From an uncultured Dehalococcoidales bacterium (lineage in GTDB: Bacteria; Chloroflexota; Dehalococcoidia; GIF9; UBA5629): a stretch of DNA of 64,000 bases. Made by a program: the position numbers and the translations under genes. Location: assembly GCA_964400675.1 (NCBI GenBank), contig CAYNVO010000003.1:42576-106575 (forward strand), written 5' to 3'. A model generated the notes under the pieces. The model was not told the DNA's origin. It did not search any database and was given only the letters and a program-made list of their open reading frames with translations. Positions 5,171 to 46,439 of the stretch are shown here, in pieces; within the stretch, counting starts at the first letter, position 1; each line of letters starts with the position of its first letter.

Positions 5171-5782
5171 ATGAAGTCGAAGCGAGTAGGTAAAAGGACA
5201 CCGGAACAGGAATTGAGGTTGGACCTCAATGTACCAAACGTTGTGACTGCGGTGCGTGTGGTGATGGCGTGTGTTATTTTCTGGCTCTTGTGGCAGGGAG
5301 AGTTCCTGGCGGCAGGTATTTTAATTCTTATTGCTGCGGCTACCGACGGACTGGACGGCTTGCTGGCTCGCAGACTCGGGCAGTCAAGCCTGGGTGGGTC
5401 TATTTTCGACATGGTGGCTGACGAGATACTATTTATGCCCAGCCTGATTCTAGCCATAGTAGTGGGGTTGTTCGCAAGGACAGACCACCTGATGCCTTTC
5501 AATCCCTATCCATACGCGGTACTGGCTCTTGCCGGAGGAGTTGCGGTGTTTGCAGGCATAGGCACATTTCTATGGAAACGTCGGAGTCGCAACATAGAGT
5601 TTCCTACTCCCACAGGTGTGGCTAAGGTCAACTTCTGGTTCTGGCTGGCGCCGCTGGTGGTAGCCGTTTTTGGAATTGGCCCTGACTGGTTGCTTGCCAC
5701 GCTGATGTATATGGCGATTGTCTCCACCATTCTAACATTCTATTCCTATCTCAAGAAGGGCGGCTACGTTTTCACTGACTGA
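5171..5782 (+). CDS. CDP-alcohol phosphatidyltransferase family protein.
   Basis: DGLDGLLARRLGQSSLGGSIFDMVAD matches the D-G-x2-A-R-x8-G-x3-D-x3-D signature. Multiple TM segments. Confidence 0.7.
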   Translation: MKSKRVGKRTPEQELRLDLNVPNVVTAVRVVMACVIFWLLWQGEFLAAGILILIAAATDGLDGLLARRLGQSSLGGSIFDMVADEILFMPSLILAIVVGLFARTDHLMPFNPYPYAVLALAGGVAVFAGIGTFLWKRRSRNIEFPTPTGVAKVNFWFWLAPLVVAVFGIGPDWLLATLMYMAIVSTILTFYSYLKKGGYVFTD

Positions 5783-5844
5783 CTTTGTATCCGGTCTCGC
5801 TCGACAGATTCATGCCTGACGTGGTGTAAGATACGGAGAGTAAG

Positions 5845-6210
5845 GTGATATACGAGCATTTCCGGCAGCCTGTAATTCCCAGAGCTGCATTTTTTCTCCG
5901 CGTTGGCTGGCATGTTTTTATCGCTCTGGGTATTGTCATCGTTTCGCTGGGGATTGGCATTGTCGGCTACCATGAGTTAGAAGGCTTATCCTGGATTGAT
6001 TCTACGGTTAATGCCGCCATGATTCTCGGTGGCATGGGGCCCCTGAATCAGCTACAAACCGATGCCGGCAAGCTGTTTGCCTCATTCTATGCGCTGTTTT
6101 CCGGAATAATCTTTCTTGTTGCCATTGCCATCCTGCTTGCCCCGGTCGTGCACCGGTTCCTCCATAGATTTCATTTCGATTTCGACTCTGAGAGTTCAAC
6201 CGGGGACTGA
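5845..6210 (+). CDS. Small two-TM membrane protein, possibly pore-loop channel-like.
   Basis: Two hydrophobic helices flank 'YHELEGLSWIDSTVNAAMILGGMGP', which resembles a channel pore-loop. No confident family call. Confidence 0.35.
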   Translation: MIYEHFRQPVIPRAAFFLRVGWHVFIALGIVIVSLGIGIVGYHELEGLSWIDSTVNAAMILGGMGPLNQLQTDAGKLFASFYALFSGIIFLVAIAILLAPVVHRFLHRFHFDFDSESSTGD

Positions 6211-6229
6211 TTCACTCCGGAATTGCACT
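6207..6229. repeat. 23-bp direct repeat, copy 1 (CTGATTCACTCCGGAATTGCACT).
   Basis: 20 of 23 identical to 7301..7323. Both copies lie immediately 3' of a stop codon and bracket the adh gene. Confidence 0.6.
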
Positions 6230-6263
6230 TCACAATTTGATGATGTATAGGAGGTAAAGGAAT

Positions 6264-7295
6264 ATGCGTACAGTTATATTAGCCGATGGCAAACTGGTTA
6301 TAAAAGACGTACCTAAACCTTCCCCCGGGCACGAAGAAGTCCTAGTCAAGATTACCACTGCAGGTGTTTGCCACTCGGATTTACATCTGGTTAAGGGAGA
6401 TTGGCCTGCCTTTGTCCGACCATTCCCAATTCCGATGGGTCATGAAGGCATAGGAATAGTCGAGGAGCTGGGTCCTGGAGCGGAGAAATATATACAGAAA
6501 GGCGATAGGGTTATATTGGGTCTCGGTGGCTCAGGCGGAGGATACTGGTGTGGCGCTTGTGAATATTGCCTTAGTGGCAGACCCAGGCTCTGCAAGCAGG
6601 CTAAGGGCATTATCGGTGCCTATGCCGATTACATTTCGGTCTGGGCGAAGTCATTAGTAAAGCTGCCTGAGGAAATAAGCGACAGGGAGGTTCCACTGGC
6701 ATGCGGAGGATTAACAGCCTATAGCGCCGTCAAAAAGCTTATCAAATTCGATGTTGTACCAGGCAAGCCGGTAGCCATTATTGGCGCGGCGGGTGGGCTT
6801 GGGCACTATGGAGTGCAGGTAGCCAGGGCGTTCGGGTATAAAGTAGTCGGAGTTGATGTGGGCAAAGAAAAAATAGAGTTTGTGAAGAATCTGGGTGCTG
6901 ATTATGCCGTGGATGTAAGCGAAGCAGTCGAATTCGTCAAGGAGAAGTTTGGTGGCGTGTACGCCAGCATCGTATTTTCACCCAAAATAGCCGGCTTTGA
7001 GCTTGGATTAAAGTTGTTGAAACGTGGAGGAGTATTCGTGGGCGTAGGAATGCCCGCGGTGAGCGAAGGAACAATATCGATGACTCCGGTGGAGCTGTTA
7101 GCCAGGGACCTGCTCATAATGGCGTCGGCGGTGGGTACAGTGGAGGAAATGAGAGAATTGGTTCAACTGGCAGCCGATGGAAAAGTCAAAACTCACGTAA
7201 GTAGAGTTGCCGGCTTATCGGAAATCAGCCAGGTACTTGAGGAGCTGGAGGAAGGAAAGTACGCCGGCAGAGCCATTATTGATATGACGAAATAG
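6264..7295 (+). CDS. Zinc-dependent alcohol dehydrogenase (MDR family).
   Basis: GVCHSDLHLVKGDW, GHEGIGIV, structural-Zn motif CGACEYCLSGRPRLC, Rossmann motif AIIGAAGGLG. Confidence 0.85.
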   Translation: MRTVILADGKLVIKDVPKPSPGHEEVLVKITTAGVCHSDLHLVKGDWPAFVRPFPIPMGHEGIGIVEELGPGAEKYIQKGDRVILGLGGSGGGYWCGACEYCLSGRPRLCKQAKGIIGAYADYISVWAKSLVKLPEEISDREVPLACGGLTAYSAVKKLIKFDVVPGKPVAIIGAAGGLGHYGVQVARAFGYKVVGVDVGKEKIEFVKNLGADYAVDVSEAVEFVKEKFGGVYASIVFSPKIAGFELGLKLLKRGGVFVGVGMPAVSEGTISMTPVELLARDLLIMASAVGTVEEMRELVQLAADGKVKTHVSRVAGLSEISQVLEELEEGKYAGRAIIDMTK

Positions 7296-7300
7296 AGGAG

Positions 7301-7323
7301 CTGATTCAGCCCGGAACTGCACT
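7301..7323. repeat. 23-bp direct repeat, copy 2 (CTGATTCAGCCCGGAACTGCACT).
   Basis: See copy 1. Lies between the convergent adh and SIR2-like genes. Confidence 0.6.
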
Positions 7324-7328
7324 AAACG

Positions 7329-8399
7329 TCATGTAGTGTGATTATTCAAGTAACACTGAAAGCCATCCAAATGGATGTCAATTTCCTGCTTCAGCATTGG
7401 AAATAGTCGTTTACATTTCATTATGATGGCTCTTCGCTTGATGTCTTCATTTTTTTTACGGCCGTAACAGTCAACAACCTGCAATTTGGTGTGCATCCCC
7501 AGTGAACGGGAAAATAAATTCACCACCTTGCGATCATATTCTGGAAACGAATAACCGATTACTGTGACTATGTTCGCTGTTTTCAATTCCTTCTCTGCTG
7601 AAGACCAAAGAGGCTGAATCATCTTGGGGTATGGTTCATACGGAATAATTATGAAAGGTTGGACAGATTCGCCACAATTTTCAGAACACCTCTTATTATC
7701 GAAAAAATTCTTGAACATGAAAGGATAATACAGATGTAGATGATTACAGGAAGGACAAATCCCCCAATCGATAGACCCGTTAAGTTTGATAAGTTTTATG
7801 GGGTTGTTTTGTGCATAGAATTTTTTACGCTTATCGTCAATCCAATCAAATTTAAGCAAATAATCAAAGTAGACATTTGCATCAAAGTCTTCGTGTAAAA
7901 GAACGTCGAAATTGAAAGAAAGTATTGCAACTTGGCCTGGGTGATTGCTCTTCAAAACTCTGTCTATGAATCTCTTGTATAGAAGGTTTTCATGGCCAAT
8001 GCTGGACTCTGCTAAGTGCTCAAAAATTAACCTTCTAACGAGTTCTACCCCCTTGATATCTCCATTTTGTTGTAACATCATCAGGATTTCATCAACGTAA
8101 CGCCTTTTGTTCCGTAGCCTTTTATTCAGTATGCCACGTGTATCGAAAACCATATCGCCTCTCTCATCCCATTCTTTAAGAAGAAATTCGTATTCTGGAT
8201 AAATTGATGCAGCTAATTTAAGGAATTCACGATAATTGGAGAATCTTTCATTCTCCTCTTGAAGATCTGGACTCCCATTGTCATTATATGGAAGAAGTCG
8301 CCCACAATCCAACGGATAGTTCCAGACTAAGTCCCTTCCTAGTGGGGTATTGGCAGATGCTGCAGATGCTCCGGCCCCAAAAACATATACATGTTTCAT
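7329..8399 (-). CDS. SIR2-like (sirtuin / SIR2_2 DHS-like NAD-binding) domain protein.
   Basis: N-terminal VYVFGAGASAASANTPLGRDL resembles the sirtuin GAGIS..G.P.FR loop. SFNFDVLLHE resembles the (T)TNxDxLxE motif. IKLIKLNGSIDW resembles the SIR2_2 'KLHGSxxW' motif but has Asn where the catalytic His is expected. Cx2C...Cx2C Zn-ribbon (CPSC...CSENC). VIGYSF near the C-terminus. Confidence 0.55.
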   Translation of the reverse strand: MKHVYVFGAGASAASANTPLGRDLVWNYPLDCGRLLPYNDNGSPDLQEENERFSNYREFLKLAASIYPEYEFLLKEWDERGDMVFDTRGILNKRLRNKRRYVDEILMMLQQNGDIKGVELVRRLIFEHLAESSIGHENLLYKRFIDRVLKSNHPGQVAILSFNFDVLLHEDFDANVYFDYLLKFDWIDDKRKKFYAQNNPIKLIKLNGSIDWGICPSCNHLHLYYPFMFKNFFDNKRCSENCGESVQPFIIIPYEPYPKMIQPLWSSAEKELKTANIVTVIGYSFPEYDRKVVNLFSRSLGMHTKLQVVDCYGRKKNEDIKRRAIIMKCKRLFPMLKQEIDIHLDGFQCYLNNHTT

Positions 8400-8630
8400 T
8401 TTACTTCATGCCACCTCCCCCTTTTTAATGCTTGCCAATTAACCCAAGCGAGGTTATTTTTTCTTAGCATTTCCACACTTTTAGGTAATACTTCGTTGTT
8501 GAAGACAAGCCTACTATTCACAGCAATGATTTTATACTCCTATTAGCCTTAAGGCAATTTGCGACACAAGCTGCATCTGCACAATCAAGCCAAAAAGTAA
8601 ACTCGGGTTTTACTGGTATTTCGTCCGTTT

Positions 8631-9947
8631 TCAATGATAGCTGGCCAACTTAGAATCCAATGTTCTTTTTATACGTGTCTCTACAAATTCTTTCGTAAGC
8701 ATTTCATCGTAGCGAAAGTAGACCATGGTAACAGCGTTTTCAGAGCAAAGGCTTGCTTTCAATTTGTCACGTTCCTGTGTTTGTTGAAAACCATCCTCGC
8801 CACCAAAAAATGGGATAGGGTCATAATGTTGGCGTCCCTGATATTCAATTGCCAACCGGAGTTCAGGTACAAAGATGTCTAGTCGTTGTCTACCTAACCA
8901 TTCTGGACTTGCTTGATGGACAATTTCATTCTTGGGAAAAATGTCCTTCACCATATTCAGCAGTTCCCTTTCAGATACCCAGCCCTCGCCAATGTGCGGA
9001 ATGCCCAGTAGGTCACGTATTTCATTTTCGGCTTCATGCTCGTCGATATTTTTCTCGATGGCTATTCGTTTAATGTAAGGGCCATAGTGAACCTTCACAT
9101 TACTACCATACATCGGGTGGCAATAGAAAAGTTCAGAGGGAATATCACGGCAAAGATGGCAAATACCGCTTCGGAACTTAGATTTCTGATATGAAGCTAT
9201 AAACTTGTGAGCCCAACCGCTTTCTGCATAAGGATTTTTCTCCTCAACTGCTTTCAAATAGTGCTTCTCCAAGGCTGTTCTGAAACATTCGCAGAAATAA
9301 GACTTGCCACAAACCTTACATATGAACCTGATAATCCGGTCATCTATATATGCCGCCAGGTAATCAGGGTGACATTGACACGACGGAACAAGGTCATCGC
9401 CGATAGAAGTAAGAACTTCAACAGGAAGTCCTATATGTCCCCAATACCCCATGCGAATTATGTAACGGGAAACCGTTTTTAGATGCTTGCTCTTAACCTC
9501 GAGTGGTTTCGGGCAAATCAAATTAACGGGCTTCTCTAAGTGAATTACAGGAGAATCGTTATGCCTAACTATAATCGTGAACTCAAACCATCCCAATTCA
9601 ACCACCGATTGCCTGGGTAAATCCTTTAGGAACCAGGGAAGATGAATTATTGAAGGTTGAGGTGGATACCTGTATCTCGATGGCAGATGTGAATCCGGCG
9701 ACCCTATTAGCATATATTCGCGACTTAGAGACAAGCCTTTGGCAAACCGCGAAGGGCCAGGGTTGAAGCCTATTTTGAAACGAAGTATCTCTCCAGAAGC
9801 GACAAAATTCCTAAGTTGCTTGTCAAATTGCTCAACAACAAGTTGAATAATGAGTTCGGGTAAACTCCGCATTGGTGAACTTAGAATCTTGTCCTTCAAC
9901 CCACATCGAAACAGGTCAAAATCTATGTCCAGCCGGAGAGTAAACAC
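8631..9947 (-). CDS. Cys-rich (zinc-finger-like) protein with a C-terminal DUF559/Vsr-like endonuclease domain. N-terminal ~170 aa are unassigned.
   Basis: C-terminal RLDIFVPELRLAIEYQGRQH...QTQERDKLKASLCSENAVTMVYFRYDE fits the DUF559 pattern 'D..P..L.IE.DG.QH....RD..L...G..V.R'. Central Cys clusters CQCHPD, CKVCGKSYFCEC, CHLC. 231-bp gap to the SIR2-like gene on the same strand. Confidence 0.45.
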   Translation of the reverse strand: MFTLRLDIDFDLFRCGLKDKILSSPMRSLPELIIQLVVEQFDKQLRNFVASGEILRFKIGFNPGPSRFAKGLSLSREYMLIGSPDSHLPSRYRYPPQPSIIHLPWFLKDLPRQSVVELGWFEFTIIVRHNDSPVIHLEKPVNLICPKPLEVKSKHLKTVSRYIIRMGYWGHIGLPVEVLTSIGDDLVPSCQCHPDYLAAYIDDRIIRFICKVCGKSYFCECFRTALEKHYLKAVEEKNPYAESGWAHKFIASYQKSKFRSGICHLCRDIPSELFYCHPMYGSNVKVHYGPYIKRIAIEKNIDEHEAENEIRDLLGIPHIGEGWVSERELLNMVKDIFPKNEIVHQASPEWLGRQRLDIFVPELRLAIEYQGRQHYDPIPFFGGEDGFQQTQERDKLKASLCSENAVTMVYFRYDEMLTKEFVETRIKRTLDSKLASYH

Positions 9948-10109
9948 TTGCTTATTCGCCCAATCTTTTAGAAACTTTAGGCTAATCGGTTGGCACTGTC
10001 AAACGTACTTTTTCTCAGAACCAAAGAGCCTTATTTGCTATCACTACACTTTTTTCAAATACGCAGGTAACGATTCATCGTTTTGTTACCCTTCGCCCGG
10101 GGCAATGTC

Positions 10110-10652
10110 CTAAATCTGTCCTTTTACCTGGACCGGCAGGCAGGCGACCATGAGATAAACTTCGGTGGCGTGGCTGGCGAGTAGCTGGTTGGCTTTGCCC
10201 AGCAGGTCGCGGTAGATGCGGCCGAGCTTAGTTTCAGGTACCAGTCCCATGCCGACCTCGTTGGAAACGATGACGAAGCTGGCATCGAGCCTGTCCATGA
10301 CGGCGATAAGCTGGTTTATTTCAGAAAGCACCCTTTTTTCAGCTTCCGGGTAGTCAGGCTCGTCATGTAGCAGGTTGGAGATGAGCAGGGTGAGGCAGTC
10401 TATGATTACCAACCCGGCATCGCCGATTCCTTTCTCTATTCCTCTGCCGATGCCTGTTGATAGCTCCAGAGTGTGCCAGTTTTGGGGACGGTCTTTTTTG
10501 TGTTCGGCAATGCGAGCCTGCATTTCTTCATCGAGCGCCTCGCCGGTGGCGACGAAGAGGACTTTGTTGCTGAGCTCTTTAGCCAGTTGCTGGGCATAAT
10601 GGCTTTTGCCGCTGCGGGCGCCGCCGAGTAGAAGGATGATTTGTTTAGCCAT
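10110..10652 (-). CDS. cobU: Adenosylcobinamide kinase / adenosylcobinamide-phosphate guanylyltransferase.
   Basis: P-loop GGARSGKS and the VSNEVGMG...NQ CobU family motifs. 180 aa. Confidence 0.85.
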   Translation of the reverse strand: MAKQIILLLGGARSGKSHYAQQLAKELSNKVLFVATGEALDEEMQARIAEHKKDRPQNWHTLELSTGIGRGIEKGIGDAGLVIIDCLTLLISNLLHDEPDYPEAEKRVLSEINQLIAVMDRLDASFVIVSNEVGMGLVPETKLGRIYRDLLGKANQLLASHATEVYLMVACLPVQVKGQI

Positions 10653-10682
10653 TGTTGTGCTCCGAAATAGCGTTCATTTGTT

Positions 10683-11489
10683 TTACTGTGGTTGAGATTC
10701 TTCGCTGCGCTCAGAATGACAGGACGGGAAGATCTCAGAATGACAGGGCAAGAAGTGCTCAGAGTGATGGAGATTTGGATTCTTCGGTCGCTTTGCTCTC
10801 TCAGAATGACAGGAGGGGTTGCCAAGGCTGTACTCCTGTATATCTAATGTCCAGTGGTTGTCCCTGGATATGGGAACAGATTTACCTATTTTTACGGGCT
10901 TCTTGAACGCCGGTCCGTCATATACAAAAGTGTGGAACTCTCCGGCTTCGCCGCAGACGTCGATTTTTGATTTCGCCGCCAGCGCTTTAAGCTCGGAAGC
11001 CAGTTTGCCATCCACCTGCCTGCCCAGCCATTCCTTGCCGAAGAACTCGGTTTTTACGCTGACAACAATGGCTTTGAATCCAGCATCGATGAAGTCGGTC
11101 AGAAGACGGGCGCTGGCCATCCCCCACAGGGGCAGTATTGCCTTCACTCCTGATTCGCCACAGACCCGGTCTATCCAGTCCTTGTGTTCCTGCAGATATA
11201 TATCGCCGGTTATCAAGCCAGTTATGCCTTTGAGCTTAAGCTCGGCTAATGCTTCTTTGAACCCGGCTTCGTAGGTCTCCCAGGTGACTTTTTGCTGAAG
11301 TATGGGCAGAGCCATAGCCTGTGCCTGTAGAGCTATGAGTTTGCGGTCCAAGCCGTGAGACATAGCTCTGGTTGAGTCCGTGTTTATAAAGTTGAGCAGA
11401 TGGCTGACCTTTAAGCCCTGGGAAATCGCTTTCCAGCAGGCAAAGCAACTGTCCTTGCCACCGCTCCATGAAGCTGCATATTCAGTCAT
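10683..11489 (-). CDS. PP-loop ATPase of the MJ0570/Dph6 (ATP_bind_4, diphthine-ammonia-ligase-like) family. C-terminal ~40 aa are read through the repeat array.
   Basis: SWSGGKDS PP-loop at the N-terminus. CGEAGEFHTFVYDGP matches the Dph6-family 'GEgGEyHT.V.DgP' block. The C-terminal tail (CHSE repeats) is translated from the tandem repeat, so the real stop may differ. Confidence 0.6.
   Translation of the reverse strand: MTEYAASWSGGKDSCFACWKAISQGLKVSHLLNFINTDSTRAMSHGLDRKLIALQAQAMALPILQQKVTWETYEAGFKEALAELKLKGITGLITGDIYLQEHKDWIDRVCGESGVKAILPLWGMASARLLTDFIDAGFKAIVVSVKTEFFGKEWLGRQVDGKLASELKALAAKSKIDVCGEAGEFHTFVYDGPAFKKPVKIGKSVPISRDNHWTLDIQEYSLGNPSCHSERAKRPKNPNLHHSEHFLPCHSEIFPSCHSERSEESQPQ
10693..10816. 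repeat. Degenerate tandem array of about four copies of the CCTGTCATTCTGAG-containing unit (minus-strand reading), related to the element at 50.1 kb.
   Basis: Minus strand reads CCTGTCATTCTGAGAGAGCAAAGCGACCGAAGAATCCAAATCTC / CCATCACTCTGAGCACTTCTTG / CCCTGTCATTCTGAGATCTTCCCGT / CCTGTCATTCTGAGCGCAGCGAAGAATCTCA. It overlaps the 3' end of ORF 10683..11489. Confidence 0.6.
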
Positions 11490-12217
11490 TGAAACCTCCC
11501 AATCAAGATGAGTAGTAGAAGCACCAGAACCTCGGCTATCTCGTTGATGGCTCCGTAGTTATCGCCGGTAAGCCCGCCCAGACGGGAACGGAAGTAGCTG
11601 GCTATGCCGAATGCAACAAGCCACAGGGCTGCCATGAGCACCAGACCCCACAGCTTCAGCAGGGCTACGGCGACAATCAAAGCTATGACGGTGGCTATGG
11701 TCAGTCTCTGCCAGGTGGCACCCCGTTTGAAGGCAAGTCCCATGCCGGAGTGTTTGGCATAGGGGAAGGTGAAGATGATGGAGACCATCACCCAGCGGCT
11801 CAAAGTGGGCATGAGCAGCAGGGCTGGCAATATCGGCGCTGCGGAGAGGGAGACATATTTGAGCAGCAGCAGGAGAATGGCGCCGACGATGCCGAAGGCG
11901 CCGACTTTGCTGTCCGACATTATGTCCATCCGTTCCTTTTTGGACTTGCCGGCGATAACGCCGTCGCAGGTGTCGATGAAGCCATCGAGATGGTGGGCGC
12001 CGGTCAGTATGACCAGAGTTATGATGAGCAGTGCGTTTACCACGGAAGAGGGCAGGATAAAACTCAAGCCATAGTAAAGGCCAAGCAGGACGACGCCGAG
12101 AATCAAGCCGACCAGCGGGAAATAGGTCAGTGATTGGCCCGAGGTCTTAGCTGTGGCCTTGTGCCGTAGTGGTGTGGGGAATATGGTCAAGAATTGGATT
12201 GCTTCCCAGAAACCCAA
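11486..12217 (-). CDS. cobS: Adenosylcobinamide-GDP ribazoletransferase (cobalamin synthase), membrane protein.
   Basis: Polytopic membrane protein of 243 aa with CobS-like N-terminus (MGFWEAIQFLTIFP) and HLDGFIDTCDG. Confidence 0.85.
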   Translation of the reverse strand: MGFWEAIQFLTIFPTPLRHKATAKTSGQSLTYFPLVGLILGVVLLGLYYGLSFILPSSVVNALLIITLVILTGAHHLDGFIDTCDGVIAGKSKKERMDIMSDSKVGAFGIVGAILLLLLKYVSLSAAPILPALLLMPTLSRWVMVSIIFTFPYAKHSGMGLAFKRGATWQRLTIATVIALIVAVALLKLWGLVLMAALWLVAFGIASYFRSRLGGLTGDNYGAINEIAEVLVLLLLILIGRFQ

Positions 12218-12228
12218 ATTTATTCTCC

Positions 12229-13302
12229 TTATTGTGGTTCGAGCGGTCTGGCTTCGGAGACGCCGGCCTGAGCAAATGTAGCCATCTGGCTCAGAGTTCT
12301 GACGGAGGCTTCAGCCAGTGAGATGCCCAGGACAGCGCCGGTGCCTTCGCCAAGTCGCATATTAAGATTTAGCAATGGTTTCAGTCCCAGAAACTGTAGC
12401 AGCAGCTCATGTCCTGCCTCTGCCGAGAGATGGGCGGAGATGAGGTAATCTCTGGCTTGTGGTGATAAGCCGATGGCGATGAGGGCGGCAGTCCCGGAGA
12501 TGAAGCCGTCGATGACCACAGGGATTCTGTAGGCAGCGCCGGCAAGCATAACTCCAACCAGCCCGCCGATTTCGAAGCCGCCGACCTTGGACAAGATGTC
12601 TATCGGGTCCTTGGGATTAGGCTTGTTAATCGATAGGGCTCTTTCTATGACCTTGATTTTATGGGCGAGCTGTTTATCGCCGATGCCGGTGCCCCGGCCG
12701 GTGATTTTCCTGGGCTGTTTGCCGCTGATGGCGGCGAAGATGGCGCTGCTGGCGGTGGTATTGCCGATGCCCATATCTCCAGCGCCGATGATATCGACTC
12801 TCTTAGCCATCTCGGCTTCGACCGTCTGGATGCCGGCTTCTATGGCGTCAATGGCTTGCTGGCGTGTCATCGCCGGTCCCTGTGTTATGTTCTGGGTGCC
12901 GAAGTCTATCATTTTACATAATAACCCGGGCAGCGGTTGGAAGCCGCCTTTGACTCCCATATCTACTATTATAACCCGGGCGCCTATCTGTTCGGCCATG
13001 ACATTTATGGCGGCACCGCCTTTGAGGAAGTTGAGGACCATCTGGCGGGTTACTTCCTGAGGATAGAGGCTGACCGTTTCGGCAGCGACGCCGTGGTCAG
13101 CAGCCATGATGATTATGGACTTATGTTCCAATTTAGGTGTGGCTTCGCCCTTGATTCCGGCAATTTGAATCGACAGCTCTTCCAACCTGCCCAGGCTGCC
13201 GTGCGGCTTGGTCAGACTGTTCTGGCGGCTCTGCGCAGCTGCCATCGCTGAGCTATCCAGCGGCTTGATTTCTTTAAGTATTGTGTCTAAGGAAGTGGTC
13301 AT
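12229..13302 (-). CDS. cobT: Nicotinate-nucleotide--dimethylbenzimidazole phosphoribosyltransferase.
   Basis: 357 aa. CobT-like blocks (GAGDMGIGNTT, IDGFISGTAAL, HLSAEAGH). Confidence 0.85.
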   Translation of the reverse strand: MTTSLDTILKEIKPLDSSAMAAAQSRQNSLTKPHGSLGRLEELSIQIAGIKGEATPKLEHKSIIIMAADHGVAAETVSLYPQEVTRQMVLNFLKGGAAINVMAEQIGARVIIVDMGVKGGFQPLPGLLCKMIDFGTQNITQGPAMTRQQAIDAIEAGIQTVEAEMAKRVDIIGAGDMGIGNTTASSAIFAAISGKQPRKITGRGTGIGDKQLAHKIKVIERALSINKPNPKDPIDILSKVGGFEIGGLVGVMLAGAAYRIPVVIDGFISGTAALIAIGLSPQARDYLISAHLSAEAGHELLLQFLGLKPLLNLNMRLGEGTGAVLGISLAEASVRTLSQMATFAQAGVSEARPLEPQ

Positions 13303-13321
13303 TGTTTAAGCTCCTTGCCTG

Positions 13322-13846
13322 TTAATATTCGATGCCGCGCCTGGCATCTGTACCCTCGGTGAGGGGATGTTTAATCATGAGCATTTCGGTGACTAAATCA
13401 GCCCGCTGTATTATCTCCGGTGGCGCCTTCCGACCGGTCAGAACCAGTTCAACTGAGGCAGGCTTTGAATCAAGTATGTCCAGCACCTGCTTGACGGTTA
13501 TCAAGCCCTGGCTGATGGCGATAAAAATCTCGTCGAGTATGACCATGTCATACTTCCCGCTGAGTATCTCTTGCTCGGCGTAGGCTAATGTTTGATGAGC
13601 CTCCTGGCTTGATTGCTCCTTGGATTTTTTAAAGCTATCGCCGACGCTTATCTGGACTATCTCGAAGGGGTTGTACTGCTTTACGAAGAAATGCTCGCCG
13701 CAGGGTAGCCCTTTTAAGAACTGGATGAAGGTCACCTTCATACCCTGTCCCGCGGCTCTCATCGCCAGACCTAGAGCGGCAGTGGTCTTGCCTTTACCGT
13801 CGCCGGTGTAAACATGGACAAGACCTTTGGAGTTTTTTTCAACCAT
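13322..13846 (-). CDS. cobO: Cob(I)yrinic acid a,c-diamide / corrinoid adenosyltransferase (BtuR/CobO/CobP family).
   Basis: VHVYTGDGKGKTTAALGLAMRA and DEI..AI motifs, typical of PF02572. 174 aa. Confidence 0.8.
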   Translation of the reverse strand: MVEKNSKGLVHVYTGDGKGKTTAALGLAMRAAGQGMKVTFIQFLKGLPCGEHFFVKQYNPFEIVQISVGDSFKKSKEQSSQEAHQTLAYAEQEILSGKYDMVILDEIFIAISQGLITVKQVLDILDSKPASVELVLTGRKAPPEIIQRADLVTEMLMIKHPLTEGTDARRGIEY

Positions 13847-15356
13847 GATTCCTCCCCAGAGCGATTTTATAGACCTGTGACATATCGAGGTTGCTCCTGA
13901 TTATATCGGCTAGTTTATCATATATTTCCTGTTTGTTTATCGATACTGTTGGGGCTTCGGGCAATCTCCTGAGCTGTCGCAGCCTGCTCAGAAGTCGGCG
14001 TGTGAATTCGCCATTGTGAAATAAGCCGTGGATGTAGGTGCCAAATATAAGTCCGTTGCTGCCGACAATGCCATCGAAGTAATCGACTTTACCCTGTGGC
14101 GTTTCGAAGACCTGGAGTATCGGCTGGCAGCGCTGGCTTCTGGTCTGCCCCATATGAATCTCGTAGCCAGTGACCTCCATGCCTTTAAGCCCTTTCAGCA
14201 AGCCTTTGTCGGCATAAACACGGGCTTTAACCTGTGTGGTCGTTTTGTCATTGTGAAAGATGGTTGTGCTATTGAGCAAGCCAAGCCCATTGATGCTGTC
14301 GTGCCTGGATTCGACTTTATCAGGGTCATGTATGCTTTTACCCAGCATCTGGTAGCCGCCGCAAATACCTATTACCGGGATGCCTGACTGTGCCAGGTGG
14401 ACAATAGCCTGTGCCAGCCCTTGTTGTTGCAATTTAATTAAATCGGCGATGGTGCTTTTGGTTCCGGGCAGAATGAGCAGGTCTGGACTGCCCAACTCAG
14501 GTACAGTGCTCACATAGCGGACGGCACAGCCCTGCTCTTCAAGCGGGTCGAAATCGTCGTAGTTGGAGATATGGGGCAGGCGTATAACAGCCACATCGAC
14601 AGTGCCGTTAGCCGAGTCTGTTTGTCTTTCGTCGAGATAGACCGAGTCCTCTTGAGCGATACCCATGTCGCGAAAATAGGGAATGACTCCCAGAACAGGT
14701 TTGCCGGTGCGTTTCTCCAGGATATCCAGCCCTGGCTTCAGCAGTTGGAGGTCACCGCGAAATTTGTTGATGATGAAGCCTTTGATAAGGTCGCGCTCTT
14801 GGCTGGTCAGCAGTTCCAGCGTGCCGATGATTGAAGCGAAAACGCCGCCGCGGTCAATATCGCCTACCAGCAGAACGGGAGCATTTACCATTCCGGCTAT
14901 TCTCATATTGACTATTTCTCTGTCTTTGAGGTTTATTTCTGCCGGGCTGCCAGCTCCTTCAATAACCACGATATCATAGGTAGACAGTAGATGACCTAGA
15001 GAGTTCTTGATTATCTTCAGCAGGTTGGGGGTATAGCTGTAATATTGACTGGCCTCCATGTTTTTAGCCACTTTCCCTAAAACGATTACCTGTGAGCGGT
15101 TATCGGCTTCGGGTTTAAGCAGCACAGGATTCATATGGACGGAAGGCTCGATGCCGGCTGCCTCAGCCTGTACTGCCTGAGCACGTCCGATTTCACCGCC
15201 TTCCCTGGTAACGAAGGAATTTAAAGCCATGTTCTGTGCTTTGAACGGGGCGACTTTGAGGCCGTCTTGCCGGAAAATTCGGCATAATCCGGCTGTGATT
15301 ACGCTCTTACCTGCAGATGAAGCTGTGCCCTGTATCATCAGGGTTTTAGCCGGCAT
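13839..15356 (-). CDS. cobQ: Cobyric acid synthase.
   Basis: 505 aa. N-terminal MIQGTASSAGKS (CobQ/CbiP ATP-binding domain). C-terminal GATase1-like domain with GICGGYQMLG. Confidence 0.9.
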   Translation of the reverse strand: MPAKTLMIQGTASSAGKSVITAGLCRIFRQDGLKVAPFKAQNMALNSFVTREGGEIGRAQAVQAEAAGIEPSVHMNPVLLKPEADNRSQVIVLGKVAKNMEASQYYSYTPNLLKIIKNSLGHLLSTYDIVVIEGAGSPAEINLKDREIVNMRIAGMVNAPVLLVGDIDRGGVFASIIGTLELLTSQERDLIKGFIINKFRGDLQLLKPGLDILEKRTGKPVLGVIPYFRDMGIAQEDSVYLDERQTDSANGTVDVAVIRLPHISNYDDFDPLEEQGCAVRYVSTVPELGSPDLLILPGTKSTIADLIKLQQQGLAQAIVHLAQSGIPVIGICGGYQMLGKSIHDPDKVESRHDSINGLGLLNSTTIFHNDKTTTQVKARVYADKGLLKGLKGMEVTGYEIHMGQTRSQRCQPILQVFETPQGKVDYFDGIVGSNGLIFGTYIHGLFHNGEFTRRLLSRLRQLRRLPEAPTVSINKQEIYDKLADIIRSNLDMSQVYKIALGRNHG

Positions 15357-39186: not shown

Positions 39187-40110
39187 ATGGCTAAGATATT
39201 AGTTACTGGCGGCAAGGGATTTATTGGCTCAAACCTCGTTCCTGAATTAAACGAACGGGGACACGAAGTCTGGGTATGCGACTTGGGTCATTCAGAGTCC
39301 CCAAACTACACCCGCTGCGATGTTACCGAATACCGCCAGCTTGAGAGAATATTTGAACACCACGACTTTGATTTTGTCTATCATCTGGCGGCAGAATATG
39401 GCCGCTGGAACGGCGAGGACTATTATGAGAACCTGTGGCTGACCAATGTGATAGGTACTAAGAATATGCTTCGGATTCAGGAGCAGAAGAAGTTCCGCAT
39501 GATATTCTTTTCCAGTGCCGAGGTCTATGGAGACTATGACGGTGTAATGAGTGAAGACGTGATGGACAAAATACCCATAAAGCAAATGAACGACTACGCT
39601 ATAACTAAATGGGCAGGAGAGCTACAATGCTTGAACTCTCAAGCCATGTTCGGCACGGAGACTGTCAGGGTTAGACCGGTCAATGCTTACGGTCCGCACG
39701 AGCATTATAGTTCTTACCGCGGTGTAATCCCGGCTTTCATTTACAAGGCTCTGCATGATGAGCCATATACAGTTTATCAGGGGCACAAGCGCATCTTCGA
39801 TTATGTAGAAGATACCTGTCGCACCTTCGCCAACATTGTAGATAACTTCATACCCGGCGAAGTTTATAACATCGGAGGCAAAGAGGAGTGGGAACACGAT
39901 ATCAAATATGTTTCCGACCTGATATTAAAAAATCTGGGCAAAACTGATGCCAAAGTCAACTATAAGGAAGCAGAACCGTTTACCACACGCTTCAAGCACA
40001 TGGACTTCTCCAAATCCAGGAGAGACCTTAAGCACGCCCCCAAGGTTCCGCTGGAGGACGGAATCCCCAAAACTATTGAATGGATGCGCAAAGCCTACGG
40101 ATTTAAGTAG
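39187..40110 (+). CDS. NAD-dependent epimerase/dehydratase.
   Basis: ILVTGGKGFIGSNLV Rossmann motif and YAITK (YxxxK). Confidence 0.75.
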   Translation: MAKILVTGGKGFIGSNLVPELNERGHEVWVCDLGHSESPNYTRCDVTEYRQLERIFEHHDFDFVYHLAAEYGRWNGEDYYENLWLTNVIGTKNMLRIQEQKKFRMIFFSSAEVYGDYDGVMSEDVMDKIPIKQMNDYAITKWAGELQCLNSQAMFGTETVRVRPVNAYGPHEHYSSYRGVIPAFIYKALHDEPYTVYQGHKRIFDYVEDTCRTFANIVDNFIPGEVYNIGGKEEWEHDIKYVSDLILKNLGKTDAKVNYKEAEPFTTRFKHMDFSKSRRDLKHAPKVPLEDGIPKTIEWMRKAYGFK

Positions 40111-40119
40111 CCCAAGCCA

Positions 40120-40140
40120 AACCTTGATATAACCTAGAAC
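40120..40140. repeat. Heptamer-repeat tract (AACCTTGATATAACCTAGAAC).
   Basis: GAACCTA-family units immediately upstream of the GT4 gene start. Confidence 0.4.
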
Positions 40141-40144
40141 TCTT

Positions 40145-41344
40145 ATGAAAATCCTTATCGTCCAGGAGAGCGATTGGCTCAAGAGAGGGCCGCACCAACA
40201 ACATCAGCTAGCAGACCGCCTTTCGCTTAGAGGTCACCAGGTTCGGATTATCGATTACGAGATTTTGTGGCGAGACCAAGACAAAAGGGAGCTTTATTGC
40301 AAACGACAGCTATTCGAAAATGTATTCAAGGTTAATCAAGGGGCGAAGGTCACCGTAATTCGTCCCGGCATAATCAAGATACCTCTCCTTGACTATGTTT
40401 CCATTGTTTTTACTCATCAAAGAGAAATAAACAGGCAAATCGAAGAGTTCAAGCCTGATGTCATTATTGGGTTTAGTATCCTGAATAGTTATCTGGCAGC
40501 AAAGGCAGCCAGGAGTAATGACATTCCCTTCATTTATTACTGGATAGACGTGCTGCACCGCTTGATACCATTTAAGCCTCTACAGTTCATTGGTGAGATA
40601 TTGGAGCACAAAACGCTAATGCAAGCGGACAGGACGCTGACAATCAATGACAAGCTTAAAGACTATGTTATCACTGCCGGTGCCGCAGCTAACAAAACTA
40701 GTGTAATCAGGGCCGGCATAGACGTGGAGCAGTTTAAGCCATCAGCTAGTATTAGCAATTTAAGGAAACAATATGGACTTAAGGAAACTGACATTGTATT
40801 GTTCTTCATGGGCTGGCTCTATCATTTCTCCGGTTTGAAAGAAGTGGCTCAGGAGTTAGCCAAAGAAACTAACAAGAACCTGAAATTGCTAATAGTCGGC
40901 GAAGGCGATGCCTTTGAAGACCTTAAGCGAATACGAAACAAATACAACTTGCAAGATAGGCTCATCTTAGCTGGACAGAAGCCGTATACAGATATGCCAG
41001 CCTTCATCTCTGCTGCCGATATATGCCTGTTACCGGCATATCCTTGGGAGAAAACAATGCATGACATAGTGCCTATTAAGTTGTATGAGTACATGGCTAT
41101 GAAGAAACCGGTGATAGCAACAAGACTGCCCGGAGTTATGAAAGAATTTGGTAAAAACAACGGCGTAGTCTATGTGAGTAAACCTGAGGATGCCATTGAT
41201 AAAGCCAAAAGCCTTGTCAAAGATGGTAAAATAGGAGAGCTTGGCGATAAAGCCAGGAAATTTGTCCAAAAATACAGCTGGGATAGTATAACCGACGGAT
41301 TTGAGAAAATTCTAGAAGAAGTTGTGATGAGTTCTAGGTTCTAA
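40145..41344 (+). CDS. Family 4 (GT-B) glycosyltransferase.
   Basis: 399 aa, GT-B architecture. The C-terminus runs into the heptamer array (...MSSRF*). Confidence 0.7.
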   Translation: MKILIVQESDWLKRGPHQQHQLADRLSLRGHQVRIIDYEILWRDQDKRELYCKRQLFENVFKVNQGAKVTVIRPGIIKIPLLDYVSIVFTHQREINRQIEEFKPDVIIGFSILNSYLAAKAARSNDIPFIYYWIDVLHRLIPFKPLQFIGEILEHKTLMQADRTLTINDKLKDYVITAGAAANKTSVIRAGIDVEQFKPSASISNLRKQYGLKETDIVLFFMGWLYHFSGLKEVAQELAKETNKNLKLLIVGEGDAFEDLKRIRNKYNLQDRLILAGQKPYTDMPAFISAADICLLPAYPWEKTMHDIVPIKLYEYMAMKKPVIATRLPGVMKEFGKNNGVVYVSKPEDAIDKAKSLVKDGKIGELGDKARKFVQKYSWDSITDGFEKILEEVVMSSRF

Positions 41345-41385
41345 GCCAAGGGGTTCTAGGTTAAGAAGTTCTAAGTTCTAGGTAG
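41329..41385. repeat. Heptamer array, GTTCTAG orientation (GTTCTAGGTTCTAAG...GGTTCTAGGTT...GTTCTAAGTTCTAGGTAG).
   Basis: Inverted relative to the array at 41763..41782. The two together bracket the four-helix-bundle gene. Confidence 0.6.
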
Positions 41386-41396
41386 AATATTGAGTA

Positions 41397-41765
41397 ATGA
41401 AAATCGAAAGATTTGAGGACATCGAAGCTTGGAAAGAGGCTCGAAATTTGGTTAGCATGATTTACGATATTTCAAATGAAGAGCTATTTTCAAAAGATTT
41501 CAGCCTGAGGAATCAAGTCCGGGGGGCTTCGGTCTCCGTAATGTCCAACATTGCCGAGGGATTTGATAGGGGGACAAATAGAGAATTCATACAATTCCTC
41601 ATAGTAGCCAGAGCTTCCGCTTCTGAAGTAAAAAGCCAGTTATATGTAGCCTTGGACCGCAACTACATTCATCAAAATAAGTTTGATAAAGTATACCAGC
41701 AAGCAACGAAAGCCATAAGTCTTATTGACGTGTTCATCCGTTACTTGAAAAAACCCAGAACGTAG
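41397..41765 (+). CDS. Four-helix-bundle protein of the 23S-rRNA-intervening-sequence protein family (TIGR02436/PF05635-like).
   Basis: IEAWKEARNLVSMIY...VMSNIAEGFDRGTNREFIQFL..ARASASEVKSQL matches the family core. 122 aa. Confidence 0.75.
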   Translation: MKIERFEDIEAWKEARNLVSMIYDISNEELFSKDFSLRNQVRGASVSVMSNIAEGFDRGTNREFIQFLIVARASASEVKSQLYVALDRNYIHQNKFDKVYQQATKAISLIDVFIRYLKKPRT

Positions 41766-41782
41766 AACCTAGAACCTAGAAC
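41763..41782. repeat. Heptamer array, CTAGAAC orientation (TAGAACCTAGAACCTAGAAC).
   Basis: Perfect 7-bp tandem units. Overlaps the stop of the four-helix-bundle gene and precedes the RBS of the next gene. Confidence 0.6.
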
Positions 41783-41796
41783 GAAGAAGGAGCAAA

Positions 41797-42795
41797 ATGA
41801 GTCAACATATGAGCGAATATAAGGGTAAGAATATCCTCATCACCGGCGGGGCTGGCTGCATTGGCAGCAATCTGACTAAAGCTCTAATAGAAGCCGAAGC
41901 AGGCAAAATAATCGTCCTTGACGACCTTTCAGCGGCTGAAAAATGGAACGTCCCCGTTGACCCAAAGGTGATATTTATCGAGGGCAGCGTATTGGATGAA
42001 GAAGCAGTAAAGAGAGCGTTCTCTGCAAAGCTTGATTTCGTCTTCCATCTGGCAGCTCACTTCGCCAATCAGAATTCAGTTGATAATCCTGAGACCGACC
42101 TCGAGGTCAACGGTCTCGGCACACTCAAGGTTCTGGAATACTCTCACCTTGCCAAGGTAAGCAAGTTTGTCTTTGCATCTTCAGGCTGCTCAGTTTACGG
42201 CAGCCAGGCGCCTCTCCCCCTGAAAGAGGATTACGTATCGCTGCATCTCGACACTCCCTATCAAATCACCAAGCTTCTCGGCGAGCTTTACTGCAATTTC
42301 TTCCACAATTATTATGGGCTGCCTGTAGCTATAGCCCGATACTTCAATGTTTATGGTCCCGGTGAAATCCCCGGTGCTTACCGTAACGTCATTCCCAATT
42401 TCATGTGGTGGGCATTACACAAAATGCCCCTACCTGTGACTGGCACAGGAGCGGAAACCAGAGATTTCACCTATGTTGAAGACATAGTTGACGGCACGTT
42501 ACGACTTGGGGCAATATCTCAGGCTGTGGGTGATGCCTTTAACCTCGCGTCAGAAACAGAAACCAAGGTAATTGATATAGCTAATATGGTTAATGAGATA
42601 ACGGGAAATCCGTCAGGTGTTACCTTTAAACCTCGCCGCGACTGGGACCAGATTACGCGCCGGAAAGCCTCTATAGAAAAAGCCAGGAAAGTTCTCGGTT
42701 ATGAGCCAGGAACAAAAATAAAAGACGGAGTCAAGAAAGTGTATGAGTGGGTTGTAGCCAATCGTGATAAAATTGAGGAATGTGCCAGATTTTAA
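41797..42795 (+). CDS. NAD-dependent epimerase/dehydratase (UDP-sugar 4-epimerase / decarboxylase-like).
   Basis: ILITGGAGCIGSNL and YQITK. The C-terminus ...KIKDGVKKVYEWVVANRDKIEECARF has a paralogous remnant at 49922..49996. Confidence 0.75.
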   Translation: MSQHMSEYKGKNILITGGAGCIGSNLTKALIEAEAGKIIVLDDLSAAEKWNVPVDPKVIFIEGSVLDEEAVKRAFSAKLDFVFHLAAHFANQNSVDNPETDLEVNGLGTLKVLEYSHLAKVSKFVFASSGCSVYGSQAPLPLKEDYVSLHLDTPYQITKLLGELYCNFFHNYYGLPVAIARYFNVYGPGEIPGAYRNVIPNFMWWALHKMPLPVTGTGAETRDFTYVEDIVDGTLRLGAISQAVGDAFNLASETETKVIDIANMVNEITGNPSGVTFKPRRDWDQITRRKASIEKARKVLGYEPGTKIKDGVKKVYEWVVANRDKIEECARF

Positions 42796-42885
42796 TCTCT
42801 CGAAGTATGCAGGGCAGACAAACGCAGGGTTGCCGCAAATTAATTTTACATAAAATAACGATGCCTATATTTTCTTCAATCCGGC

Positions 42886-43308
42886 TTAATATCCTGTTCT
42901 AACAATCAAGAAACAGCCAACAACCACGAAGGCAATCCCTATCCAATGCAATATAGTTATACTTTCTTTCAAATAAATCAAGGCAAATATCGCTGTTAAT
43001 ACATAGGCCAAGCTCATCAGGGGGTAAATAAAGCTGACATTTAGAGTTGACATTGCACCAAGCCACAGGACTAATGCGATTCCGTAGCATAATATCCCGG
43101 CAATGATACGGGGGTTGGTGAATATTCTGGAGAGTGTATCAAGGTTGAAGAGCTGCCCCATACTTTTGATTTCTCCGACTTGATTCACACCACTTTTCAT
43201 CAGGATTTGTCCCATTGCCGCACCGAATATGCAGAGCAACACCAATAGTAGAGCAAACAACATAGCACTCCTTTTCTTGAACCTTGGTAGCCCAAATTTT
43301 CTTTTCAA
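42886..43308 (-). CDS. EamA/SMR-like four-TM membrane protein (ArnE/ArnF-like polyprenyl-sugar flippase subunit candidate).
   Basis: 140 aa, four predicted TM helices. Lies in the glycan cluster. Confidence 0.55.
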   Translation of the reverse strand: MKRKFGLPRFKKRSAMLFALLLVLLCIFGAAMGQILMKSGVNQVGEIKSMGQLFNLDTLSRIFTNPRIIAGILCYGIALVLWLGAMSTLNVSFIYPLMSLAYVLTAIFALIYLKESITILHWIGIAFVVVGCFLIVRTGY

Positions 43309-43393
43309 TTTTTACCCAGCAGTGTAGATTTTCTTACCGTTAAATCAGAGCTTGATATTAGGCATGCCAGCTCCTTAATGTCAATAATATAGG

Positions 43394-44293: not shown

Positions 44294-44336
44294 GATGATT
44301 ACCTGCCTAATAATTCATTAGTTCGAGCTTTTGATG

Positions 44337-45634: not shown

Positions 45635-45657
45635 ATTTGATGCGCGCGTTCTTATAT

Positions 45658-46365: not shown

Positions 46366-46439
46366 TGAGCAATTTACCTCAAACCATAATTACATTAGCA
46401 AACTGGCAGCCCAGTCTGGTCGCAAATAAAAGCACCCTC

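Follow-up and report, generated by a model that had tools for sequence, protein, structure and literature searches.

We wanted to establish whether two adjacent genes in a 64-kb stretch of DNA from an uncultured Dehalococcoidales bacterium (64,000 nucleotides; hereafter the window), which an earlier note had interpreted as a SIR2-plus-nuclease defence module, form a functional pair. Both genes are on the minus strand and are separated by an intergenic gap of 231 bp: ORF1 (7329-8399) starts with ATG and encodes a 356-aa protein with a SIR2 fold, and ORF2 (8631-9947) starts with GTG and encodes a 438-aa protein. They lie between a Zn-ADH gene (adh, 6264-7295), which is convergent to ORF1, and the cobalamin gene cobU (10110-10652), as the earlier note had described. 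The AT-richness of the two genes relative to the cobalamin genes was also borne out. The GC content is 38.7% in ORF1 and 43.0% in ORF2 compared with 54.7% in cobU, 50.4% in adh, and a mean of 46.3% over the window (i.e. 39 and 43% versus ~55% for the cob genes); a scan of the window revealed equally low 1-kb windows at 40-46 kb and 58-64 kb, located in glycosylation clusters. Both ORF1 and ORF2 are missing at this site in close relatives with flanks that are 88-94% identical, and gene lists for the relative L124 show a DEAD-box helicase gene and an RRM gene in place of the variable segment (6214..10116) comprising adh, ORF1, and ORF2. We conclude that the ORF1/ORF2 segment is an AT-rich insertion not present in close relatives and not, as the earlier note had allowed for, a pair of core genes of normal composition at this locus. 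An Rfam scan of positions 7000-11000 returned no RNA families.

Comparison with related sequences revealed that each gene resides on a discrete segment of its own. The mobile ORF2 unit (8587..10086, minus strand) consists of 139 bp of upstream sequence, the coding sequence, and 44 bp of downstream sequence; it is 94.3% identical at the nucleotide level to L032 over exactly this interval, with nothing matching beyond it, and it shares 90-92% identity with L115-L118, whose left boundary coincides with its own; these close copies occupy four contexts. The ORF1 unit (7328..8593, minus strand) consists of 194 bp of upstream sequence and the coding sequence to one base past the stop, and it is 88.8% identical to L114 over exactly this interval, in an unrelated context without ORF2. 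Each unit contains a promoter-like sequence, identified by consensus match only: TTGCCT-17-TAAAAT (9/12; 8529..8557, minus strand) in the ORF1 unit, in a region conserved with L114, and TTGACA-17-TAAAGT (10/12; 9974..10002, minus strand) in the ORF2 unit, where it precedes the GTG codon by 27 bp. Just past the ORF2 stop, a terminator-like hairpin, GTAAAACCCGAGTTTAC, followed by a T-run can be read from the sequence (8590..8613, minus strand); it is AT-rich, falls under the GC rule of the scanner, and is conserved in L032. A 41-aa small ORF upstream of ORF1 was taken as non-coding because its reading frame is not conserved with L114. With respect to gene neighbourhoods, no ORF2 homolog was found beside ORF1-family genes at any of 17 informative loci, no ORF1 homolog beside ORF2-family genes at any of 21 informative full-length loci, and no co-occurrence of the two families at any of the 126 loci fetched outside the present genome; the informative counts (17 and 21) are modest because many loci are short metagenomic contigs. 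ORF1 was solitary at 17/17 informative loci, which span many phyla of bacteria and archaea, and 21 ORF1 loci revealed no conserved neighbour family, the downstream genes being mostly housekeeping genes. Overall, these results show that ORF1 and ORF2 are distinct units, each of which has boundaries of its own and occurs alone elsewhere, and their adjacency is probably accidental. The proposed two-gene module thus fails on a point that the earlier note had itself named, i.e. that homologs of the two genes never co-occur.

We also inspected the ends of the units. The left junction core, GGTAACAAAACGATG (10076..10090, minus strand), ends in an 11-bp sequence, ACAAAACGATG, which is also present in the empty site of the relative L125 (GGGTAACAAAACGATGTTTTGC) and, in other contexts, where the ORF2 unit ends on the left. 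No second copy of the 15-nt core was found, repeats on the two sides of each unit, whether direct or inverted, did not exceed chance, and the right ends of the units (L115, L116, L032, the window, and L114) had no end motif in common and lacked terminal inverted repeats. Movement of the units could not be attributed to a recombinase, to target duplications, or to repeats at their ends. An integron-cassette (attC) reading was rejected on inspection, as the breakpoints lack the conserved GTTRRRY core and there is no integrase nearby. The sequence at 7301-7323, previously described as a copy of a 23-bp direct repeat, occurs once in the window at up to 3 mismatches, belongs to no repeat family, and overlaps a terminator-like hairpin (7298..7312, minus strand) in the gap where ORF1 and adh converge.

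Elsewhere, ORF2 homologs stand at the left margin of small islets of variable content, with a constant left boundary and a varying next gene downstream. This slot 3' of ORF2 is filled by ORF1 in the present genome, and in others by Tiamat TmtA, HEPN_Cthe2314, GmrSD-HNH, Mrr-STAND, a NarE-type ADP-ribosyltransferase, a ParE toxin-antitoxin pair, serine or tyrosine recombinases, or housekeeping genes, or it is empty. At one chromosomal site in related genomes, the occupant is TmtA in L032 and HEPN in L116. ORF2 and HEPN_Cthe2314 travel as a 2.4-kb unit found in two contexts, and in one lineage, ORF2 stably follows gatA at a distance of 17 bp over divergences of 59-77%. We note that TmtA (Tiamat), the GmrSD-like HNH enzyme, and Mrr-STAND (PDC-S73) match PADLOC families of named or candidate defence systems and are not known to require a nuclease partner. 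Support for a defence context is only indirect and comes from the slot occupants in other genomes.

The AF2 model of ORF1 (pLDDT 90) displays a sirtuin fold with a Rossmann core and a small domain, and the top 50 Foldseek matches in the PDB were all SIR2 or sirtuin proteins (E down to 1e-9). On the strength of the model, we are confident that ORF1 is a SIR2-fold protein. The sirtuin/SIR2_2 identity previously assigned to it therefore holds for the fold but not for the Pfam profiles at threshold: ORF1 scored 12.2 bits against SIR2 (PF02146), below the gathering cutoff of 24, and did not reach the SIR2_2 (PF13289) threshold. Within the family, weak SIR2 and SIR2_2 matches were obtained for 16/31 and 13/31 members, respectively (best E 3.5e-5); NCBIfam gave a weak CobB match far under the family cutoff, and PADLOC gave weak matches to Aga_SIR2 (E 3e-7) and to other SIR2 models (E no better than 2e-4). 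The sequence hallmarks listed in the earlier note are present and conserved in homologs, namely the GAGAS glycine loop (residues 8-12; 8364-8378), the NxD motif (N163-x-D165; 7905-7913), the K205-L-N207-G-S block, and a zinc ribbon with C215, C218, C238, and C242 (7674-7757, all minus strand), except that the second Cys pair of the ribbon is Cx3C and not Cx2C. G8-A-G-A-S12, N163, and D165 are invariant in 107/107 homologs, and N163 and D165 align to the residues of the same number in PsSIR2. The catalytic general-base His (xLHGS motif) is absent from ORF1, which has Asn-207 (7779-7781, minus strand) at the position that aligns with the His of PfSir2A and PsSIR2; across the family, this residue is Asn in 89/107 members (83%), His in 17, and Arg in 1. 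Because Asn replaces the general-base His, ORF1 would be expected to consume NAD+ (as an NADase or ADP-ribosyltransferase) and not to be a deacylase. The protein also has a large helical insert (residues ~28-150), and the family is patchily distributed across bacterial and archaeal phyla.

ORF2 comprises an orphan N-terminal domain (residues 1-190; 9378-9947), a Cys/His-rich module (residues 192-280; 9108-9374) with a Cys cluster at 192-276, and a Vsr/EDxHD-like nuclease domain (residues ~320-438; 8634-8990, all minus strand). The Cys clusters and the Vsr-like PD-(D/E)xK fold (a fold match of the C-terminal part) claimed for ORF2 were upheld, but its assignment to DUF559 was not: DUF559 (PF04480) and Vsr HMMs did not match ORF2 at E up to 1 or any of 33 family members at E up to 0.1. 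The motif D357...E368-Y-Q370...H374...R393-D394 is conserved across homologs, with E326, D357, H374, and D394 invariant in the family and Gln-370 nearly so. The spacing of these putative catalytic residues resembles that in I-Bth0305I and Vsr; their mapping onto the EDxHD motif is by fold match and motif spacing, as neither a PDB profile search nor BLASTP against a Vsr sequence gave a residue alignment. The family, with at least 554 metagenomic matches, has no Pfam or PADLOC model; the only Pfam signal was a weak one to DUF2726 (15/33 members), and Pfam, NCBIfam, and PADLOC scans of ORF1 and ORF2 gave only sub-threshold matches. A tblastn search of phages and plasmids with ORF2 returned only relatives of its C-terminal half, annotated "hypothetical protein", and we found no published description of the family in the literature. 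The dN/dS of ORF2 relative to L032 is 0.12. ORF1 and ORF2 each represent an uncharacterised family, that of ORF2 being a family of predicted nucleases.

How, then, is the segment best explained? It is well established that SIR2 domains serve as NADase effectors in defence systems of several genes, SIR2-HerA among them, and ORF1 and ORF2 are adjacent, co-oriented, and both AT-rich. These points favour a reading in which the nuclease and the SIR2 NADase make up one anti-phage system, with one as the sensor and the other as the effector. We nevertheless consider a two-gene system highly unlikely, given that the homologs never co-occur, each gene is found alone elsewhere with its own upstream region at ~90% nucleotide identity, a ~95%-identical ORF2 (L032) is followed by a different gene, and the genes have separate promoter-like sites with a hairpin and T-run between them. 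A looser coupling of ORF2 with its downstream gene is a possibility because ORF2 and HEPN_Cthe2314 move together as one unit of 2.4 kb in different contexts; here ORF2 would be a common upstream sensor, regulator, or second effector serving interchangeable downstream effectors (SIR2, HEPN, NarE, and others), much as in defence families that swap their effectors, and effector-type genes do recur on the same strand downstream of ORF2 homologs. However, several of the "partners" match named or candidate defence families in PADLOC (TmtA, GmrSD-like HNH, and PDC-S73), some slots are empty or filled by housekeeping genes, a toxin-antitoxin pair, or recombinases, and ORF1-family genes are always without ORF2, which makes such a modular system rather unlikely. 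The least probable reading is that both are core housekeeping genes, ORF1 specifying a CobB-like deacylase and ORF2 a Vsr-type mismatch-repair nuclease. The weak CobB (NCBIfam) and SIR2 matches, the zinc ribbon resembling that of canonical sirtuins, the Vsr fold, and the stable place after gatA in one lineage point in this direction, but both genes are missing from relatives with flanks of 88-94% identity, are patchy over bacterial and archaeal phyla, and have close copies in unrelated contexts; further, some copies are pseudogenes, 83% of the ORF1 family has Asn for the general-base His, and scores are far under family cutoffs.

The explanation that we favour, and consider probable, is that ORF1 and ORF2 do not form a functional pair but are single-gene cassettes, each mobile in its own right, that lie stacked at a variable site downstream of cobU. 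On this view, ORF2 would be a mobile nuclease "anchor" gene, and the adjoining cargo slot would hold ORF1, a SIR2-like candidate defence gene that stands alone, has a promoter-like region of its own, and possibly acts as a single-gene accessory or defence factor. ORF2 may be an active DNA endonuclease: a defence nuclease that works as a single gene and resides in defence islets, or else a selfish nuclease of the homing type that cuts DNA and thereby promotes the turnover of neighbouring cargo. Taking this further, the ORF2 family could be a free-standing chromosomal EDxHD/Vsr-type nuclease that both marks and, by cutting nearby, drives a one-gene defence slot just downstream, with ORF1 (a stand-alone, His-less, zinc-ribbon SIR2) as a new single-gene NAD-targeting defence factor in that slot; we regard this extended proposal as doubtful but conceivable. 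If it is true, ORF2 would represent a minimal carrier of defence cassettes that is led by a nuclease, unlike islands based on integrases, transposases, or integrons. The analysis removes a tempting false positive, as a SIR2 gene adjoining a nuclease gene resembles a new defence system, and it offers the ORF2 family as a possible marker for mining new single-gene defence candidates and as a lead that may point to an exchange of defence genes driven by a nuclease. The ORF1 clade of widespread stand-alone sirtuins with Asn for the general-base His bears on the chemistry of minimal SIR2 proteins.

Among known systems, the best structural matches to ORF1 are the SIR2 subunits of SIR2-HerA (Paenibacillus PsSIR2, PDB 8w9l/8wld; E. 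coli, 8sub; Foldseek E 1e-9, TM ~0.5), from which ORF1 differs in having no HerA or other conserved partner, an identity of only 12-16%, a four-Cys zinc ribbon as in canonical sirtuins, and Asn where PsSIR2 has His-212. Known SIR2 defence systems (Thoeris, SIR2-HerA, SPARSA, DSR1/2, and Avs5) have an obligatory partner or a fused sensor (ThsB-TIR, HerA, short pAgo/APAZ, a large C-terminal sensor, or a STAND NTPase), which ORF1 lacks: the 21 loci have no neighbour family in common, and the protein has only 356 aa. With canonical sirtuins (CobB, Sir2Af2, PfSir2A, and SIRT3/5), ORF1 shares the Rossmann core, the GAGxS loop, the NxD motif, the [K/E]L[H/N]GS-x4-CxxC zinc ribbon, and the GYS/GTS strand; unlike them, its family mostly has Asn for the general-base His (89/107), a large helical insert, and sub-cutoff Pfam and NCBIfam scores, and it is mobile, patchy, and AT-rich. 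ORF2, in turn, is unlike the EDxHD/Vsr-like homing endonucleases I-Bth0305I and phage Hef (PMC3239194) in that it is free-standing outside any intron or intein, has an orphan domain and a Cys-rich zinc module in place of a NUMOD/HTH N terminus, and is encoded in the chromosome, where a variable slot for defence genes lies on its downstream side; any homing by ORF2 would be putative. The ORF2 islets differ from the E. coli defence hotspots (PMC10121019) in that att-like repeats were not found, the fixed edge is a nuclease gene and not an integrase, tRNA, or prophage, and the islets are tiny, with one or two genes, but, like these hotspots with cargo turnover, the ORF2 site varies in its defence genes and carries low-GC cargo.

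In agreement with the earlier note, two co-oriented ORFs lie on the minus strand between a zinc alcohol dehydrogenase gene (adh; 6264-7295) and cobU (10110-10652), the last gene of the cobalamin operon: the SIR2-like ORF1 (7329-8399; 356 aa, ATG start), which is convergent with adh, and the Zn-finger/nuclease ORF2 (8631-9947; 438 aa, GTG start), 231 bp apart. As also claimed, the segment is AT-rich compared with the cobalamin genes (GC content of 38.7% for ORF1 and 43.0% for ORF2 versus ∼55%, with a GC3 of 64-71%, for the cob genes; window mean, 46.3%); the dip is genuine yet not unique within the window, as clusters of glycosylation genes elsewhere (40-46 kb and 58-64 kb) are just as AT-rich. 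The other low-GC stretches (40000-46400, 48000-50000, and 58000-64000) carry genes for glycosyltransferases, sugar epimerases/dehydratases, methyltransferases, and a B12-radical SAM enzyme and are probably variable surface-polysaccharide loci. A 23-bp direct repeat had been proposed at ∼7300-7322, but this sequence occurs once in the window, even with 3 mismatches allowed, belongs to none of the window's repeat families, and overlaps a terminator-like hairpin between the convergent ORF1 and adh.

The boundaries of the ORF1 and ORF2 units were settled decisively by near-identical DNA copies in loci fetched from other genomes and metagenomes (L-numbers). In L114, ORF1 (82% identical) is placed between fumarate-reductase-like and tRNA-synthetase genes, and the nucleotide identity with the window (88.8%) extends only over 7328-8593 (i.e. 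ORF1 and 194 bp upstream). L032, in which ORF2 is 95% identical, matches the window (94.3% nucleotide identity) only over 8587-10086 (i.e. ORF2 with 139 bp upstream and 44 bp downstream). The two units meet at a TGGCTT microhomology; promoter-like sites are located at 10002-9974 in the ORF2 unit and 8557-8529 in the ORF1 unit, and a hairpin and T-run lie just after ORF2.

The earlier note had regarded ORF1 and ORF2 as one defence-like module, and the distribution of their homologs contradicts this. A profile scan for the ORF1 family, with one genome per species, yielded 31 loci, from Syntrophales, Anaerolineales, Methanocellales (archaea), Nitrospirota, Planctomycetia, Omnitrophota, Elusimicrobia, and others, and an ORF2 profile scan of metagenomes yielded 80. 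When every fetched locus was searched with both proteins by tblastn, none outside this genome contained the two together: of 17 ORF1 loci extending 1.7 kb or more upstream, none contained an ORF2 homolog, and of 21 full-length ORF2 loci extending 1.3 kb or more downstream, none contained an ORF1 homolog. No recurrent neighbor of the ORF1 homologs was found; the genes beside them mostly have housekeeping roles (BioD-like, DAHP synthase, TruB, PGI, and a DNA-alkylation repair gene), and one encodes a XhoI restriction enzyme. We conclude that the proposed SIR2-nuclease system is not a real unit and that ORF1 and ORF2 are very probably not an obligate system.

Copies of ORF2 with at least 89% nucleotide identity occur in four contexts with a constant left boundary and differing downstream genes: the SIR2 gene in the window, a HEPN_Cthe2314 protein in L115 and L116/L117, and a protein matching Tiamat TmtA (PADLOC, E = 2e-91) in L032. 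ORF2 and HEPN_Cthe2314 form a 2.4-kb two-gene unit with 89.8% nucleotide identity in unrelated contexts (L115 5870-8251 and L116 4056-6438); this pairing, unlike that of ORF2 with SIR2, recurs and might be a real module. Further, L032 and L116 share the same chromosomal site and flanks (CutA1-NadA, 83% identical), and their ORF2 copies are 91% identical at the nucleotide level, but the cargo is the TmtA homolog in the former (11626-14079) and the HEPN gene in the latter (5635-6396), which is a clean example of defence-gene replacement. ORF2 is also paired with HEPN_Cthe2314 at L126 5001-6835. Downstream of more distant full-length ORF2 homologs, the slot holds a gene for a GmrSD_N-HNH enzyme (L033), a NarE-type ADP-ribosyltransferase (L035), a DUF5677 protein (L036), an Mrr-nSTAND3 protein matching PADLOC PDC-S73 (L060), or a ParE toxin-antitoxin pair (L128). 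The homologs in L044 and L053/L054 and a partial homolog in L082 precede large serine recombinases, a partial homolog in L059 precedes a tyrosine integrase, those in L046 and L066 precede housekeeping genes, and that in L127 is followed by nothing. In one lineage (L034, L035, L037, L039, L127, and L128), the ORF2 homolog begins 17 bp past the gatA stop codon across 59-77% protein divergence, and the downstream slot is empty or holds either a NarE-like gene or a ParE toxin-antitoxin pair.

Comparison with relatives of the window showed a hotspot of variable gene content downstream of cobU. L121 and L124 (CobU 91-92% identical) keep synteny on both sides of the variable segment but, at the place of window 6214-10116, have genes for a DEAD-box helicase and an RRM protein. 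The closest relative, L125 (94% nucleotide identity), departs from the window at position 10076; there, a gene encoding a signal-peptide protein replaces adh, ORF1, and ORF2. Because all three carry other genes here, adh is part of the variable segment and not a fixed flank. The empty site in L125 (6545-6575) reads GGGTAACAAAACGATG followed by TTTTGC, and the ORF2 unit starts with ACAAAACGATGAAT in the window and L032, with close variants in L116 and L115. An 11-bp sequence, ACAAAACGATG (within window 10076-10090), is found both in the L125 empty target site and, in unrelated contexts, at the left end of the ORF2 unit. A second copy of this junction core was not found, at any right end or elsewhere, nor were flanking direct or inverted repeats or a shared right-end motif of the units; repeats or end motifs do not explain the movement of either unit. 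On the other side of cobU, a ∼157-bp stretch (10664-10820) missing from L121 and L124 contains three exact copies of CTCAGAATGACAGG and lengthens the C terminus of a diphthamide-synthase-like ORF (10683-11489); a 41-bp piece is found again in L032 (5606-5646, 88% identity), and the stretch resembles a MITE- or REP-like dispersed repeat.

The SIR2 assignment of ORF1 was borne out by its fold, while the Pfam SIR2 profile scored below threshold (12 bits; cutoff, 24); PADLOC Aga_SIR2 matched with E = 3e-7 and NCBIfam CobB weakly. A homolog search gave 175 relatives, almost all metagenomic and without Pfam domains, of which 31 were used as input for an AlphaFold model. The model is confident (pLDDT 90, pTM 0.89), and its top PDB matches are all SIR2 proteins (the SIR2 subunit of SIR2-HerA and canonical sirtuins; E down to 1e-9, TM ∼0.5). 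All 107 full-length homologs share residues GAGAS 8-12, H128, N163, D165, K205, G208-S209, D211-W212, and GYS 282-284, and the four zinc-ribbon cysteines are nearly invariant. The putative catalytic residues of PsSIR2, the SIR2 subunit of Paenibacillus SIR2-HerA, are N163, D165, and H212 (PMC11472057). Because the KL-N-GS block of the ORF1 family aligns with SLHGN of the canonical sirtuin PfSir2A and KLHGS of PsSIR2, Asn207 (7779-7781) occupies the general-base His position, which is Asn in 89, His in 17, and Arg in 1 of the 107 homologs. By fold and NAD-binding motifs, ORF1 thus belongs to the SIR2 superfamily, within a distinct clade, and it lacks one classical defining feature, the general-base His. 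H128 (8016-8018) is invariant (107/107) and position 207 mostly Asn, and H128 might be a stand-in catalytic residue. Rather than acting as a deacylase, ORF1 may be an NAD+-consuming glycohydrolase or ADP-ribosyltransferase. Some family copies look degraded, with a stop 19 codons early in L114 (4798-5811) and split reading frames in L007, L016, and L020, which fits rapid turnover of an accessory gene.

ORF2 has no significant match in Pfam, NCBIfam, or PADLOC. The DUF559 assignment of the earlier note was not upheld, as neither the DUF559 nor the Vsr profile matched (only DUF2726 did, weakly) and comparisons with Vsr at the sequence level gave no match, but its Vsr-like C-terminal nuclease was recovered at the level of fold: in the AlphaFold model (pLDDT 86.6; residues 66-101 disordered), the C-terminal domain has four structure matches, including eukaryotic RAP domains (Vsr-like). 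Residues ∼294-433 also match PHROG families whose annotation is homing or intron-encoded endonuclease. The best PHROG match is phrog_27771 (unknown function; E = 3e-35), over residues 212-426, comprising the Cys module and nuclease. A homolog search gave 327 matches, and the metagenome scan confirmed at least 554 related stretches. E326, D357, H374, and D394 are invariant and Q370 nearly so; the D-to-H spacing of 17 equals that of D196-H213 in the EDxHD homing endonuclease I-Bth0305I (PMC3239194), and, in this putative mapping by fold and spacing, the residues would fit the E-D-x-H-D signature. The dN/dS of 0.12 relative to L032 indicates purifying selection, and ORF2 is a candidate active EDxHD/Vsr-type DNA nuclease.

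Such a nuclease could serve in defence, or it could be a homing-type selfish gene that promotes exchange of neighboring cargo. The C-terminal half of ORF2, comprising the Cys module and the nuclease, is shared with “hypothetical proteins” encoded on Arcobacter, Acinetobacter, Vibrio, and Rhizobium plasmids; it is also present in large phages of Staphylococcus and Bacillus, in one case under the annotation of group I intron protein. Because the EDxHD family has free-standing members, e.g. phage Hef (PMC3239194), and Vsr-like domains serve as effectors in defence systems, e.g. type III-B CoCoNuTs, the fold alone cannot choose between these roles. We consider a nuclease-led cargo-slot model unlikely.

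Overall, we conclude that the locus is a small islet of two independent cassettes. ORF2 behaves like a conserved gene at the edge of small islets whose one or two genes vary, with defence and toxin genes enriched among them. In this genome, the slot is occupied by ORF1, which everywhere else is a solitary gene and which may encode an NAD-consuming enzyme that works alone in an accessory or defence role. The most notable feature is a fixed-edge nuclease beside a cycling defence slot, the more so should the nuclease lead the exchange of cargo. Compared with known systems, the locus is a defence-type islet or hotspot of a known kind that holds two uncharacterised families.
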